The notes beneath the pieces were generated by a model. It ran no database searches, had not been told where the DNA came from, and was given only the letters and a program-made list of their open reading frames with translations. Positions 2,939-58,338 of a stretch of 64,000 bases of DNA are shown here, one piece after another. The position numbers and the translations under genes are program-made. Each line of letters begins with the position of its first letter. Positions within the stretch are counted from its first letter, which is position 1. The DNA is from a phage: assembly GCA_027263115.1 (NCBI GenBank), contig GCA_027263115.1_3656.1, one strand, 5' to 3'.

Positions 2939-3554
2939 TCTGAATCTGATTTTCTGGAAATCGTTCCGGCTCTCGACCTGAAATTTTTGGGGACGAAATC
3001 GATTTTTCGTTTTCAGAAATGGATTTTTAAAATTTCTATATGGGAATATTTTAGTGGATACTATTTTATAGGAAATTGTTACGGAGGGTAATTAGCGTGC
3101 TAATTAAATTTATTAAATGCGAGGAGTTCTCATTTAGAATTTTGAATGATAATCATTCTCGTTTGCAGAATAACGGGCAGGCCCGGTGATTGTCTCCCGG
3201 CCCCTACTGCCCCGGCTTGTTATTATAGTAACACACAGGACAAAGAAAGCAAGAAGTTTTTGCATAAATTTTTAGACGATAATGATAATCGTTCTCATTT
3301 CATGCAGCGCCCATCCCCGGTGGTTGTCTCCCCCGTCACCGGTGCCTGCCGTCCTTTCGATAGGTATATTTTGCCACCTGGCGGGGCCGCTGTCAACACT
3401 TTTCAAAAAAATTTCTAACCTGATGCGCTGACCGCTGCAACCTGGCGGGGCCAGCCTGGCAGGGCCTAACTGACCAGGTAGGAGAGAATGAAGGCTTGCA
3501 AACCTGGTGGGCCTATGCTATAGGATAGGTAACAATTGAAGAGGAGGTACAAAA

Positions 3555-13400: not shown

Positions 13401-13664
13401 ATGAAACGTCTTGATCAGCTCAAACTAGTTCAGTACATGGCCTACAGAATTCTTGAAGTCCAAAAAGGTAGCAAAAAAGAGGTTTGCGAGAAAGCTTATA
13501 AGATCTTTACCCGCAAAAAAGATGACTGGATGCTACGCCAGACCAAAAAGGCTGACATCTTGGGGTACCTGGAAGAAGAGATCCGCCTTGAAGAGCAAGA
13601 AGAGATCCGCCGCAGTGAAGCAGATTATCAGGCAGCTTGGGAAAACTGGATGAATAACAAATAA
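13401..13664 (+). CDS. hypothetical protein
   Basis: ATG after AAGAGGTAAA (start trimmed from track ORF 13329); Lys/Glu-rich. Confidence 0.5.
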   Translation: MKRLDQLKLVQYMAYRILEVQKGSKKEVCEKAYKIFTRKKDDWMLRQTKKADILGYLEEEIRLEEQEEIRRSEADYQAAWENWMNNK

Positions 13665-13728
13665 TACAACAAGTTACGGTCAGGGGGCAATAAAGCCCCT
13701 TGATCACATAAAAATTATGCTATCCTTA

Positions 13729-13757
13729 TTGACAAGGATCGGCAGTTTTGCTATATT
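13729..13757 (+). promoter_or_regulatory. sigma70-type promoter TTGACA-N17-TATATT
   Basis: Hexamers upstream of ORF 13807. Confidence 0.5.
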
Positions 13758-13806
13758 CTTTTTTAAAGGGAAGTTGTAAGAAAATTAACTAAGAGGTAAA
13801 AACACC

Positions 13807-14226
13807 ATGAACATTAAATCTAATAATCCGGCATATAGCTTTGATAACGCTTTTTGTCACGGTCCGGCGGCGAAAGGATTCGAAATCGATGGTAAACTAA
13901 TTATTGTCAATGTTGACGGGGAAGAGGTTGCAGTATATCCGGTGGCAGACGTAAAAAGCCGTTTACAATGCCGCATTGATGTTACCGCCTATCAGCTTGA
14001 TCCGGTCCGCATAGTTGCCCTGGTCCTGGAAGAAGAAATTAAAGCCATGCACCATAGCAACAGGTTTATTGGTGACGCTCAGGATAATATGAAGGTGTGC
14101 CGCCATAAAGTTAATGAAGTGCTTAAAGAGTACGGCTATAAAGATCTTATGATCAAACGTGATGAAAAATTCCGGTACCGTAACGACCTGGCAAATCGAA
14201 TCTATGAAATATACGAATCATTATAA
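13807..14226 (+). CDS. hypothetical protein
   Basis: 139 aa, SD AAGAGGTAAAAA; last gene of rightward early array. Confidence 0.6.
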   Translation: MNIKSNNPAYSFDNAFCHGPAAKGFEIDGKLIIVNVDGEEVAVYPVADVKSRLQCRIDVTAYQLDPVRIVALVLEEEIKAMHHSNRFIGDAQDNMKVCRHKVNEVLKEYGYKDLMIKRDEKFRYRNDLANRIYEIYESL

Positions 14227-14244
14227 TTTTTTAACTGAATTATC

Positions 14245-14270
14245 AAGGGGCTTAGGCCCCTTTCTTTTTG
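14245..14270 (+). terminator. rho-independent terminator closing the early array
   Basis: AAGGGGC-loop-GCCCCTT hairpin followed by TCTTTTTG. Confidence 0.65.
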
Positions 14271-14877
14271 TCTGATCTTCCCCCTACCATAAACGGCCCT
14301 ACCTGGCAAGTGGAATAATTGACGAGCCATCAACCCCACACACTGTACAAATATACATGTAAAATAACTATTGCATAACTTTTCATTGTGTGGTAGCAGG
14401 GCTATTTTTACCCGTTTTTCCTTCCAAAATTGCACGTAATGCAGCTATTGCACAAAATTTAACCTGATGCATATCTTCAGTGTCTTGTCAACAACTAAAA
14501 ATCTTTATAAGTCATGCACTTACATAACCACAAAAGCGTGCTCTACGTGAAAAATCGAGTATAACTATAGCCGCCAGATCTCAGAATTTACGTACGCTCA
14601 CCATTCTATAGTCTGCTAAGTATTTATTCCAACCATAGAATAACGGAATAGTCAATACCTGCATAAAATAATTATTCGTGTAAACTGCATAACATAAATC
14701 AGCTTAGGTGTCAACATTTTTCGTAAACAGTCTGAAATTATCACGATGAGTTATCATAAACAGAGAAATCTTTAGTCGTCTAATGTTTACTGTACGTTAC
14801 TATACTAACTGAAATCATTAGATGACTAATAGAAAGATAAGAAATAATTAACAATACAATTATTTTATCTGTAACAA

Positions 14878-15165
14878 TAAGGCAACTATGCAAACGAATG
14901 GCATGGCGCGACGGAGTCGCGACATAATATAAAAGCAGTAACCATCACCCCCGTGATAGTTTGTCTGCAATCTATTAATCAGATCATAGTTGCCTTGTAT
15001 TTAGTTAATCATGACATAACAAGCAAGGCAACTATAGATCTGCTAATAGTTGCCCTGCTTTTATATTATGTCATAGGAACGCCCGAAGGGGTGACCTAGT
15101 CACCTGGCATAGCCAGCGAAAGATTATTAACTTGGTAATAGTTATCATGCAAACGAATGGCATGG
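14878..15165. repeat. nested palindromic region: 18-bp inverted repeat (about 14921-14938 vs 15055-15072), 19-bp direct repeat ATGCAAACGAATGGCATGG x2, AGGCAACTAT/ATAGTTGCC inverted copies
   Basis: Reverse complements and direct copies read directly in the sequence; no ORF with a ribosome-binding site. Confidence 0.65.
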
Positions 15166-15179
15166 CTTATCATCTCTGT

Positions 15180-15420
15180 GTAAACAGTCAATCATGTAAA
15201 CTATTAGATATGTAAACAGTAAAGGGCGTGAACAGTAAGCGAGGGAATAGTAATAGCGTGAATAGTGACAGCGTAAACAGTGACAGCGTAAACAGTCAGG
15301 CATGTCAATTATGTCATATTGTGTCACCATTATGTCACTATTGTGTCACCAGTATGCCCAGTATGTCAATTGAGTCTAAAGTGTCAAAGGTGTCAGACAA
15401 GTTTTTCTCCTCTTTGTCAA
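15180..15420. repeat. tandem short-repeat arrays (GTAAACAGT family incl. 15-mer TGACAGCGTAAACAG x2; then 22-bp TTATGTCAYTATTGTGTCACCA x2 with further TGTCA units)
   Basis: Direct reading; track ORFs here are low-complexity artefacts of the repeats. Confidence 0.7.
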
Positions 15421-16866
15421 GTGCTGCATGAAAAATTTACAAGCTTGTATGGTAGCATTTTTGCGGCCCGTTTACATTCAGTGATGTATGTATAACCCTT
15501 GTTGTGTGGGAGTTTAGACGTCTAGACGGTTGGAAGTCTGCAGGTCAATATCTAATCTATCGGCTGCTAACTATATCCCACACAAATAGTAAGAAATATA
15601 ATTGTTATATGTGTAAACAGTAACTCATGTTATCAATCCCTGTATGGATCGCCAGTGGTGCGCATAATGGGTATTATGTTAAATTGCCCGTAATGATAAC
15701 AGTTCTCACAATGATAGGTATTCTCATTCATCCACACAAAATAGGTTGCAAATGTTGTGCCACTGTGTGAACGGCCTGGCCTATTAATTTCTCTCACTGC
15801 CTCGATATTTGAGGATTGTTATAAGAATGAGAAGTATTCCCATTCCGTCCGCCTGGCAGCGCTCCTGTAGGTCCTGCAAGGACTCTAGCTGAAAGCTAGA
15901 CCCTTCGGGCCTCCCTGTAGGTCAGGTCAAAATCGTGGCAGAACTGAGCCTGTTCAGATATTTCTGGCTGACTCTTCAGGTCTGTGTGGGAAAAGCCAAC
16001 CTCTCCGGCGGGGCAGGGGAGGGAGGTAAATTAAAAAATTTACGTGGTGTATGAAGCGCTCTTCAGGTAAGGCAGGTATTATGTGATGAAACCCTCTTCA
16101 GGCAATGATATTTGTGGGTGTGATATTTGCTGGAAAGCCAGATATGACGGGACTCCCGGCGGGGCAGGGGTAGTACAGACGGGGGAAATATGGGGATGTA
16201 GTTGGGGAAATTGATCAGGCAGGTAGAGTATGGAATATGTTACAAGTATGTTAAATATGGAGGTTGAATATCTGTAGGATTTGTGTGTAAAATCAAAGAC
16301 TTAAGTGGTGTTGTGGTATTTTCTATAAATAATTCAAGTTTAATAGGTAATATTTGCCTCTATCCACTTTGTGTGGTAAACAGATTCAGATGAGATTAGT
16401 TTACAAGTGTATACATAATATACAAATTAAAGATACAAGAAACCCCCCTCCCCCCTTCGGCTACCATTCACCTTTTCCTCTGACTGGTACTTAAACACTT
16501 ATTCAGACTCTTCAGGTTATCACCCATATATCATATGGCAGTGACTGGTGTCCTCCGGCCCCTCTTTCGTCACCCGTCCGCTTCGCCATGCTAATGCCAT
16601 AGCTAATGGTTCGGTTGTTCACCCTGTTCACTCAGGTGTATCTCTATACCCCTTCAAACCGAAGAGAACAGAAAACCCGAATTACTCGGTAAAAGAAAAG
16701 AGAAGAACTTAATTTTATCAGGATAGGCAAGAATGTCAAGGCATGACTGCTCACTAAACAAGCAAACAGTCATGTGTGGGAGGTAAGTGATTGTGGTGGT
16801 AGGAAATTTAGTTGAAAGATGTGTTATAGGTGCTTCCAGCACTTTAGCCGGGCAGCTAATTGTGTG

Positions 16867-17082
16867 TCAGTCCAGCGGTTCATCCTCTACTTCACTGAAA
16901 TCAATGTTCATGGTCTCTTCCCAACCATCGATCTCAGCACAAGAGTGGAGTTCTTTAGGGTTTACTCCCAAAGCCTCAGCAACAGAGTCTATATTTAACA
17001 CCTCTGGCAGGTATGATTCATCGAATTCAAGGTAAATCAGGCCACGAGTGTTGTCAGCTCCACCAAATATCTCTATCTTCAT
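16867..17082 (-). CDS. hypothetical protein (distal end of leftward block)
   Basis: 71 aa, ATG preceded by GAGGAG on minus strand; N-terminus MKIEI like several upstream paralogs. Confidence 0.5.
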   Translation of the reverse strand: MKIEIFGGADNTRGLIYLEFDESYLPEVLNIDSVAEALGVNPKELHSCAEIDGWEETMNIDFSEVEDEPLD

Positions 17083-17203
17083 AAAATCTCCTCTGGGAAT
17101 GAAAGTGTGAACAGGGTTTTATACGTTCTAATGCACAGGAATTATACACGTTTGCCTCTTCAGGCCATGCTTTAGCATGAGGAACCTGTGTGGGCTCGGT
17201 GCT

Positions 17204-17416
17204 TCATAGTCTACCACCTCTGAACTCTTCGTGCTCAGGCATAATAGAGAACCAGATATCTACGATGTCCTCCCACGTCAGGTCATCAGCCTCAGGATCT
17301 GTCTGGGACGAAGATGAAGAGTCCTCAGAATCTAAGTTTTCCTCTTTAACTGGCTCATCCAAGGGACATATGGTCACTCCTTCGGATGTCTCTTCAGATG
17401 CATGTGTGTTGATCAT
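17204..17416 (-). CDS. small acidic hypothetical protein
   Basis: 70 aa, weak SD GGGTGG; very Asp/Glu/Ser-rich. Confidence 0.4.
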   Translation of the reverse strand: MINTHASEETSEGVTICPLDEPVKEENLDSEDSSSSSQTDPEADDLTWEDIVDIWFSIMPEHEEFRGGRL

Positions 17417-17776
17417 GTTCCACCCGTGAGTATTCCGGCAACAGCCGCTATGGAAGTAATGATCATCAGGATCACCACTAAAACTTCAGACAATGTTCTC
17501 ATTGTGTATTCCATATTCTCCAAACTGTGTGTGGATACTATCACGGGAGCGGTAATGTGTCAACAGCAACGCCGCGAGGGTTTGGTTAAAATCCGAGCGT
17601 ATGGTGATTTGGGTCAAAACGGACGTGCGTTCTCGCTACGCTCGAAAGAGAGACTTGTTTGTAGAAAGCTCTTAAACGCTCTGTAACGAGATTATCTGTC
17701 CAAGGTATGCAATCGTGCACCAGATAAAGAAAAGGACGCCACAGAGCGTCCTAGGTGTCTTAAATTTGATATTTTG

Positions 17777-57526: not shown

Positions 57527-57601
57527 GCCCTGTTAGCTTAGTGGATAAAGCAGCGGCCTTCTAAGCCGTTGACACTGGTTCGAGTCCAGTACGGGGTGCC
57601 A
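57527..57601 (+). tRNA. tRNA-Arg (anticodon TCT)
   Basis: Hand-folded cloverleaf: 7-bp acceptor, D-arm GCTT/AAGC, anticodon loop CTTCTAA, T-loop TTCGAGT, encoded CCA. Confidence 0.75.
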
Positions 57602-57605
57602 AATT

Positions 57606-57692
57606 GGGGAGTTATCCCGTAGAGGTAGCGGTGTAGACTGTAAATCTATTGTCATTGCGACTCGGGTGGTTCGACTCCACCACTCCCCACCA
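57606..57692 (+). tRNA. tRNA-Tyr (anticodon GTA), long variable arm
   Basis: Acceptor GGGGAGT/ACTCCCC, anticodon loop CTGTAAA, T-loop TTCGACT, CCA; 87 nt. Confidence 0.65.
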
Positions 57693-57805
57693 AATTTATA
57701 TTTTAGATGCATAAATAATACAGATAATGGCATTGATATTTATCGTCGTTTATACTAGTCACTAACTGCTCGAAAATCAGTGTCATTATCAGTATAATTT
57801 ACAAA

Positions 57806-57896
57806 GGAGGGTAGGGAGCAATGGTGCTCAAGCGGTCTTGAAAACCGTCCCATTGAGGATGACTCGATGATGGTTCGATTCCATTACTCTCCGCCA
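57806..57896 (+). tRNA. tRNA-Ser (anticodon TGA), long variable arm
   Basis: Acceptor GGAGGGT/ACTCTCC, anticodon loop CTTGAAA, T-loop TTCGATT, CCA; 91 nt. Confidence 0.65.
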
Positions 57897-57994
57897 CATT
57901 GTTGACCTTGTAATTAAGCGAAAGCCGGAAGCAGAACCGGATTATCAAATGTTACAGTCGTCATCGCCGACTAGCAACATGGTCAACATACTGA

Positions 57995-58093
57995 GCTAGG
58001 TAAGCCCTTTGGCAAGGGCGAGGATTTTTAATCCTGAAAATAGACGAGGTAGTCGTTGAATACATAGATGGTTCGATTCCATCACCTAGCACC
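57995..58093 (+). tRNA. atypical tRNA-like element (possible tRNA-Lys TTT with about 25-nt insertion, or pseudo-tRNA)
   Basis: Perfect 7-bp acceptor GCTAGGT/ACCTAGC, canonical T-arm GATGG-TTCGATT-CCATC, D-arm GCCC/GGGC, TTT-containing loop; about 99 nt; no encoded CCA. Confidence 0.35.
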
Positions 58094-58098
58094 TTTTT

Positions 58099-58174
58099 GC
58101 TGATGTAGCACAATTGGTAGTGCAATTGATTTGTAATCAATAGGTTGCAGGTTCAAGTCCTGCCATCAGCACCA
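58099..58174 (+). tRNA. tRNA-Thr (anticodon TGT)
   Basis: Acceptor GCTGATG/CATCAGC, D-arm GCAC/GTGC, anticodon loop TTTGTAA, T-loop TTCAAGT, CCA. Confidence 0.75.
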
Positions 58175-58175
58175 T

Positions 58176-58250
58176 GGCCCTGTAGCTGGAAGGTTCAAGC
58201 AAGCGACTCATAATCGCCAGACGGTGGTTCAATTCCACCCAGGGCCACCA
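58176..58250 (+). tRNA. tRNA-Met or tRNA-Ile2 (anticodon CAT), elongator-type
   Basis: Acceptor GGCCCTG/CAGGGCC with paired 1-72, anticodon loop CTCATAA, T-loop TTCAATT, CCA. Confidence 0.65.
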
Positions 58251-58261
58251 AATAGTAGATA

Positions 58262-58338
58262 CTCCGCGTAGCTCAGCTTGGTAGAGCGCCTGATTTGGGA
58301 TCAGGAGGTCGAGTGTTCGAATCACTCCGTGGAGACCA
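58262..58338 (+). tRNA. tRNA-Pro (anticodon TGG)
   Basis: C1-G72 acceptor, D-arm GCTC-AGCTTGGTAG-AGC, anticodon loop TTTGGGA, T-loop TTCGAAT, CCA. Confidence 0.75.

Follow-up and report, generated by a model that had tools for sequence, protein, structure and literature searches.

Among the rV5-like phages of the genus Vequintavirus, virion ends have been established from sequencing reads in several cases: LL12 carries a 459-bp nonpermuted terminal redundancy at 104966-105424, as defined by PhageTerm (PMC6658697); the terminal repeat of Gotham is likewise read-established (PMC7471380); and EdH4 and HdK5 have 458-bp terminal redundancies (PMC6563267). In the paper describing rV5, the gap concerned was drawn as a grey box marked 'non-coding' without a proposed function, and the skew shift at this gap was noted to coincide with the change in transcription direction. 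Here we analyse a 64,000-nucleotide stretch of phage DNA (hereafter the window), in which positions 14271-16866 form such a gap between convergent gene blocks, and we propose that this gap holds a direct terminal repeat (DTR). Judged by its sequence, the window comes from a Vequintavirus, an rV5-like myovirus: 122 phage records match 14271-16866 at 90-97% over most of its length, all of them rV5-like and assigned to this genus, and a search for DNA similarity of the whole region outside the genus returned none. The counterpart of the region in rV5 is 104014-106560, between genes 163 and 164.

Our comparisons indicate that the region is very probably the collapsed junction of a concatemer, at which the linear virion DNA would end, with positions 15396-15853 as a 458-bp non-permuted DTR. 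This segment aligns base for base to the read-defined repeat of LL12 and to positions 1-459 of Gotham, whose record annotates a repeat_region at 1-459 and again at 136567-137025. Prefix and suffix are exactly identical over 458 bp in the YN3 record and over 459 bp in the Gotham record, and the ends of both records are the sequences found at the two boundaries in the window (15396 and 15853). Six further records, including Pr121LW and four bov phages, start precisely at one DTR edge or the other; records that break inside the region do so always at 15396 or 15853. The hallmark of T7-type ends, an exact non-permuted repeat of a few hundred base pairs, is thereby found in the relatives YN3, Gotham and LL12. 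The DTR is single-copy in the window because assemblies collapse the two terminal copies into one. In an alignment of the window with 13 other Vequintavirus genomes (14 in total; identity scored per 25-nt bin), the DTR is conserved at 85-99%. The neighbouring gene blocks are both transcribed toward the genome ends. A packaging or terminal-repeat boundary was among the options offered by the first-pass annotation of this DNA, and it is the option that agrees with the 458/459-bp repeat of the relatives; the termini analysis of the PhageTerm type that it recommended is already published for LL12, Gotham and EdH4/HdK5 (PMC6658697, PMC7471380, PMC6563267). Its proposed synteny comparison points the same way, with the same gap in rV5 (genes 163/164) and DTRs in non-coding DNA in the phages KPP-1 and Schickermooser. 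A DTR in this gap has thus been published for close relatives, and the edge motif, the phased arrays and the ultra-conserved block described below are modest new details.

Several points weigh against this assignment. The termini of the window rest on homology to relatives, at 95-97% identity and with conserved edges, and PhageTerm edges may themselves be off by the length of an overhang lost in library preparation. For another Vequintavirus, BpE1AUH, the published PhageTerm call was headful (pac) with partial permutation, although a cocktail was sequenced and CheckV reported a DTR too; we consider this call outweighed, because three independent groups report a fixed 458/459-bp repeat. A junction also does not account for ~1.5 kb of the flanks that is well conserved, at 14271-14870 and 16450-16866. 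The edges of the Schickermooser repeat match the symmetric cut motif described below only after a 1-nt shift. Finally, the arrays beside the DTR differ widely from one viable relative to another, both in the number of copies and in sequence, which makes a strict sequence requirement unlikely.

The two edges suggest how the ends would be made. The left edge reads TGTCA^GACAAGTTTTTCTCC (TGTCA^GACAAG), where TGTCAGACA is a 9-bp palindrome with the cut at its centre; the right edge reads ...CCGTCCGCC^TGGCAGC on the plus strand, with an indel-prone stretch just beyond it. Read on opposite strands, the 8-mers of the two edges share six of eight bases in the window (TGTCA^GAC vs. TGCCA^GGC) and seven of eight in KPP-1, the edges of which are TGCTA^AAC and TGCTA^GAC; the joint chance probability of such sharing in the window and KPP-1 is ~1.6e-6. 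One motif placed on opposite strands at both edges is expected of staggered terminase cuts that flank a single junction copy, and the conserved edges together with the opposite-strand 8-mer fit sequence-specific staggered cutting at both positions. Just outside the right edge, the window carries a ~40-bp insert (15874-15913) with a small hairpin of its own (CTAGCTGAAAGCTAG) and CTCCTGTAGGTC-like direct repeats at its borders; it occurs in five of the 13 other genomes, namely navn, A142, ev147, HeinrichReichert and, in another form, Gotham. The record of phage I29 (ON286975) has, at ~2118-2720, an inverted duplication and, after it, a repeat of ~590 bp across the right DTR edge, which could be an assembly artefact at a genome end or a genuine rearrangement.

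Two arrays of short units adjoin the DTR on its left. All six copies of GTAAACAGT in the 64-kb window fall in the region (0.2 expected if evenly spread); TGTCA occurs eight times in 110 nt, vs. a window mean of 0.19; AGGCAACTAT, ATGCAAACGAATGGCATGGC and GGGGCAGGGG are confined to the region within the window; and four of the eight window copies of CTCTTCAGG lie there. Array copy number ranges from ~2 to 10 per genome across the alignment, and the arrays are the most variable DNA of the region, in sequence as well as in copy number. The last TGTCA copy abuts the DTR edge and is invariant in all 14 genomes even though the copy number of its array varies. By analogy to the phased terminase-binding sites that accompany the nicking site in lambda cos, the helically phased TGTCA array, with its half-motifs of the cut site on one face of the helix, and the adjacent GTAAACAGT array are most likely a loading site for terminase (small subunit).

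Staggered cutting followed by fill-in or strand displacement, which duplicates the repeat, is the classical model for T7-type genomes, and the window phage would follow a comparable route. Replication would yield concatemers in which each junction contains a single DTR copy, and all virions would begin with the same sequence, i.e. T7-type short-DTR packaging rather than headful packaging, as shown for the relatives. Terminase would recognise the junction and cut at both DTR edges; its small subunit would be loaded at the GTAAACAGT array and at the phased TGTCA array, the last unit of which adjoins the left cut site; and fill-in or strand displacement after the staggered cuts would provide each daughter with a full DTR.

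The flanks of the DTR, and especially the one-orientation, iteron-like GTAAACAGT array with an AT-rich stretch and palindromes to its left, could also be read as a replication origin, possibly besides the termini, e.g. as a late rolling-circle origin coupled to packaging. The arrays do look like initiator iterons, and the GC content falls to 0.33 at 14600-15000; in phage ICP1, both the terminus (pac site) and a presumed late rolling-circle origin lie at or near a 1.3-kb space free of open reading frames (ORFs) (PMC7145576), and an ICP1 protein is one of those that the rV5 paper names as the closest homologues of the rV5 DNA polymerase. However, a DnaA-box search of the region gave one 8/9 match and no cluster; no initiator gene was identified beside the arrays, the two flanking ORFs being without a Pfam assignment; and the arrays are hypervariable, with the palindromic cassette to their left missing in phage FV3. 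Convergent transcription is, moreover, an unusual setting for an origin, and it accounts for the GC-skew switch. Our literature search found no origin mapping for Vequintavirus, and we regard an origin here as rather unlikely. The analogy to a T5-type injection-stop, or first-step-transfer, region that the first-pass annotation had also drawn fares worse. The resemblance is one of general look only, i.e. repeats and palindromes in non-coding DNA close to one end of a genome. The ~10-kb repeat of T5 carries pre-early genes, and repeats of ~10 kb are found in T5-like phages, whereas the terminal repeat here measures 458 bp and contains no supported gene; genes by both ends read outward, and no early unit enters first reading inward. 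We therefore rejected this analogy, to which we assign next to no probability.

The well-conserved flanks that a packaging junction leaves over may instead be transcribed regulatory DNA, with the block at 16450-16866 and the minus-strand promoter within it (16712-16739) giving rise to a non-coding RNA or driving transcription across the junction. Such a role would agree with the near-complete hexamer match of the promoter and its TG extension (Table 1), with the conservation of the block beyond that of the neighbouring gene (identity is at least 95% in all 118 records and at least 99% in 52 of them, vs. only six records at 99% for the gene at 13807-14223), and with the precedent of T7, in which an RNA polymerase pause at the concatemer junction helps packaging to start. 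Yet Rfam returned no match up to E = 1 for 13500-17500 (and, at gathering score, only tRNAs in the whole window); the predicted minus-strand transcript (16706-16436) folds no better than shuffled sequences (z = -1.5); variation is too low for covariation analysis; and no Vequintavirus transcriptome was found in the literature. We consider a regulatory function of this kind unlikely. Protein genes were sought by asking, for each ORF of at least 30 aa in the alignment, whether the open frame is kept and at which codon positions substitutions fall. In the two flanking genes, substitutions are in excess at third positions, as expected (10/17/100 and 6/6/31 at the three codon positions), whereas such an excess was convincing in none of the internal ORFs of this size; the longest ORF of the gap, 77 aa on the minus strand (14202-14435), overlaps the end of the preceding gene and is intact in none of the 13 related genomes. 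The region 14271-16866 is without a credible gene, and the ORF tests and the repeat enrichment together bear out the first-pass description of ~2.6 kb of gene-free, repeat-dense DNA between convergent blocks. Small unannotated protein genes could nonetheless hide in it, e.g. a 47-aa hydrophobic ORF within the DTR (15627-15770, plus strand) whose coding signal by codon position is weak. Its ATG start and open frame are present in all 14 genomes, its substitutions fall 18/11/47 by codon position, small ORFs are annotated here in some records, and the KPP-1 record annotates a 55-aa ORF at a comparable place of its DTR. But its variable columns are distributed 8/5/10, with 13 of 23 at first or second codon positions, vs. 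5/3/30 and 5/4/13 in real neighbouring genes; it has no Shine-Dalgarno sequence; the small-ORF annotations are inconsistent between records; and the 55-aa ORF of KPP-1 shares with it a 30-nt DNA block and no broader protein similarity. Hidden genes are in our view very unlikely, and the 47-aa ORF was rejected as a gene for its weak codon-position signal and its missing Shine-Dalgarno sequence. The conclusion that 15396-15853 is very probably a DTR at a packaging junction is the one we carry forward below.

Table 1. Predicted features of the gap and its borders, in window coordinates (^, cut position; "Basis" gives the supporting observation; conservation values are from the 14-genome alignment).
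Feature	Position	Strand	Basis
Putative direct terminal repeat (DTR), 458 bp	15396..15853	.	end-to-end alignment with the read-defined repeats of relatives
Right-end flank: unique non-coding tail of the right genome end	14271-15395		window orientation
Left-end flank: unique non-coding head of the left genome end	15854-16866		window orientation
Gene 164 (rV5)	13807-14226	+	139-aa ORF, end of rightward block
Rho-independent terminator closing the gene 164 transcription unit	14245..14262	+	7-bp stem with 5 GC pairs, then TCTTTTTGTC T-run
Conserved non-coding stretch of the right-end flank	14271..14871	.	85-100% identity per 25-nt bin, 14 genomes
Cassette between two perfect 20-bp direct repeats ATGCAAACGAATGGCATGGC	14888..15166 (repeats 14888-14907, 15147-15166)	.	
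Y-shaped palindromic module	14920..15072	.	outer 18-bp perfect inverted repeat plus inner arms AAGGCAACTAT/ATAGTTGCC
Array of (R)TGTAAAC(A/T)RT units, 15-16 bp apart, single orientation	15177..15300	+	conservation 0.34-0.78
Array of (W)TGTCA units, ~9-11 bp apart	15300..15395	+	TRF period 11
Left DTR edge, TGTCA^GACAAGTT	15391..15403	+	invariant in 14/14 genomes; equals Gotham and YN3 record ends
Two tandem palindrome-like sites, AATGATA(A/G)nnnTTCTCA(TT)	15692..15729	.	inside the DTR; navn record annotates a repeat_region here
Third palindrome-like site	15826-15844	.	9 nt from the right DTR edge
Right DTR edge, minus-strand TGCCA^GGCGGA	15846..15861	-	same 8-mer class as left edge
Indel-prone stretch directly outside the right DTR edge	15862..15930	.	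identity 0.39-0.48, about half gaps
G-rich block: CTCTTCAGG x3, CCGGCGGGGCAGGGG x2, GATATTT repeats	15950..16300	+	conservation 0.76-0.99
Ultra-conserved non-coding block	16450..16866	.	~1.00 identity across 14 genomes
Predicted strong sigma-70-type promoter (TTGACA, 16-nt spacer, TGaTAAAAT), directed at the DTR	16712..16739	-	11/12 hexamer matches plus TG extension
Gene 163 (rV5)	stop codon at 16867	-	71-aa ORF, end of leftward block

In keeping with the first-pass annotation, the rightward array ends at a terminator-like hairpin (14245-14262; conservation 0.94), and the leftward block ends at 16867. The ORFs of the conserved stretch at 14271-14871 are either broken in relatives or without a coding-like substitution pattern. 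To its right, the palindromic module folds far better than chance on either strand (z = -8.3) and contains terminator-like hairpins for both strands, the minus-strand site being at 14961-14940; the annotators of phage Murica placed a plus-strand terminator at the hairpin 15021-15060. Covariation in the module was uninformative either way, as its stems are invariant and show no compensatory changes. The module would be a probable two-way terminator keeping convergent units apart in circular or concatemeric replicating DNA, and the cassette is probably the two-way terminator for which the authors of the rV5 paper had looked in vain at this place. In FV3 the cassette is cleanly missing, with one copy of the 20-bp repeat left, whereas the other ten genomes checked have two copies; the cassette therefore appears dispensable. 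On the other side of the DTR, the GC skew of the G-rich block reaches +0.44, and CCGGCGGGGCAGGGG matched nothing in IMG/VR but unrelated contigs of high GC content.

Palindrome-like sites recur in the DTR. Their motif gives seven strand matches at four sites of the window (3145, 3281, 15710 and 15826) vs. 0.23 expected, with a fifth site at 15692-15708 derived from a looser pattern, and it is present in the DTRs of KPP-1 and Schickermooser as well. The two copies outside the DTR, AATGATAATnnTTCTC(A/G)TT at 3145-3163 and 3281-3299, lie in a second ORF-poor stretch (3040-3500), where a hairpin-like, GC-rich sequence comes after each of them; the palindrome motif was the sole similarity detected between this stretch and 14271-16866. 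Within it, 17 of the 19 positions of the E. coli Fur-box consensus are matched by GATAATGATAATCGTTCTC (3278-3296), the 5' half of which contains a -10-like GATAAT. It is conceivable, if distinctly improbable, that these elements make up a new terminase recognition architecture common to Vequintavirinae and Stephanstirmvirinae. A TGYYA^RRC-like motif would then occupy opposite strands at the two edges, a phased and fast-evolving array of half-motifs would load terminase at one edge, and the Fur-box-like palindromes (AATGATAAnnnTT(A/C)TCATT) would bring in Fur of the host, or else a phage protein, for packaging, in an architectural or iron-responsive role, as IHF does at lambda cosB; under that architecture, the block at 16450-16866 might be a coupled late origin or a promoter that reads the junction. 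A literature search for Fur boxes in phage terminal repeats found nothing.

The genes that border the gap, and some others in the window, deserve comment. Neither flanking small protein received a Pfam assignment. The 139-aa protein belongs to PHROG 12277, for which no function is assigned, and has ~90% protein identity to a counterpart in Phapecoctavirus, where its gene too adjoins the right end; the gene is missing in the Vequintavirus phages FV3 and HMD-6. The 71-aa protein (16870-17082, minus strand) gave a sub-threshold match to the Pfam Terminase_5 helix-turn-helix (E = 0.16; 12.4 bits vs. a cutoff of 20.3), a hint that we do not rely on. CCACACA(A) stands a few bases 5' of the ribosome-binding site of several rightward genes (7784, 12740, 13083, 54637 and 54928, plus strand), sometimes directly after a GC-rich hairpin, and has eight more copies in the non-coding region, three on the plus and five on the minus strand; it could serve as a signal in processing or regulation. 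In the tRNA cluster at 57527-58338, ARAGORN predicts a 99-nt tRNA of undetermined type with a four-base anticodon (atcc) at 57995-58093 (plus strand), the Rfam score of which is weak (37.5 bits). Among the database records that match the region, 19 of the MG0656xx series are named 'Campylobacter phage' (at least one is marked UNVERIFIED) and are 90-97% identical across it to rV5-like phages of E. coli; their host label looks wrong on this comparison.

Most rV5-like records, and the window itself, are arbitrarily opened circles with the repeat collapsed; as a consequence, small errors enter genome length, the order of the terminal genes and any comparison of one record with another. To reboot, synthetically assemble or engineer these therapeutic coliphages, which have a broad host range, one must know where the genome truly ends. 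The details that we describe, i.e. the TGTCA^GACAAG edge, the opposite-strand motif, the phased arrays and the ultra-conserved block, offers targets for the first packaging-signal experiments in this group.

Compared with LL12, Gotham and EdH4/HdK5, the window has ~95-96% identity, a repeat of the same 458/459 bp with the same edges, and the same gap between convergent transcripts; it differs in its own array copy numbers and in the ~40-bp insert right of the DTR, i.e. in nothing essential. What has been published on these relatives gives coordinates only, without the flanking arrays or the symmetric edge motif. The Klebsiella phage KPP-1 (Mydovirus) has a 514-bp DTR in a gap between convergent blocks, assigned to the T7-type class by coverage and PhageTerm, and its edges recur in the records of Klebsiella phages DP and KP12. 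In Schickermooser (Phapecoctavirus), a homologue of gene 164 with 90% identity is followed by a terminator, ~0.9 kb of non-coding DNA and then a 329-bp repeat, the left edge of which is reused by at least nine other records; five of these contain a second copy. All three have a short, non-permuted, non-coding DTR at the end of a transcription block with AATGATAAnnnTTATCATT-type palindromes inside, and the edge motifs of KPP-1 are related to those of the window. KPP-1 and Schickermooser differ from the window in DTR length and in the sequences of the flanking repeats, and they lack overall DNA similarity to it: the DTR start and interior share short collinear blocks with KPP-1, one such block near the DTR end is shared with Schickermooser, and the DNA match of Schickermooser to the region is otherwise confined to the flanking gene. 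The left-end genes of Schickermooser read inward, unlike those of the window. As the DTRs of KPP-1 and Schickermooser are similarly placed, the arrangement is older than the genus.

More distant systems share parts of this organisation. ICP1 resembles the window in having its terminus in a 1.3-kb ORF-free space, with a late rolling-circle origin predicted near pac (PMC7145576), but it was called headful (pac), in contrast to the fixed-end DTR here. T5 likewise has non-coding, repeat-rich DNA near a genome end. The cos region of lambda places a symmetric cutting site beside phased terminase-binding repeats with a site for a host architectural protein among them, an arrangement that the window would parallel in its putative terminase-binding repeats; lambda has 12-nt cohesive ends rather than a 458-bp repeat. 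There is also a parallel in layout to the concatemer junction of T7 and T3, reportedly described by Dunn and Studier in 1983 and by Chung and Hinkle in 1990: as proposed for the window, a short exact repeat, fixed virion ends, one copy per junction that needs duplication, and arrays of short repeats beside it. In T7, too, a promoter is directed at the junction, where the T7 polymerase pauses; yet T7 has a ~160-bp repeat and an RNA polymerase of its own, whereas the window represents a 136-kb myovirus that apparently uses host sigma-70 promoters.

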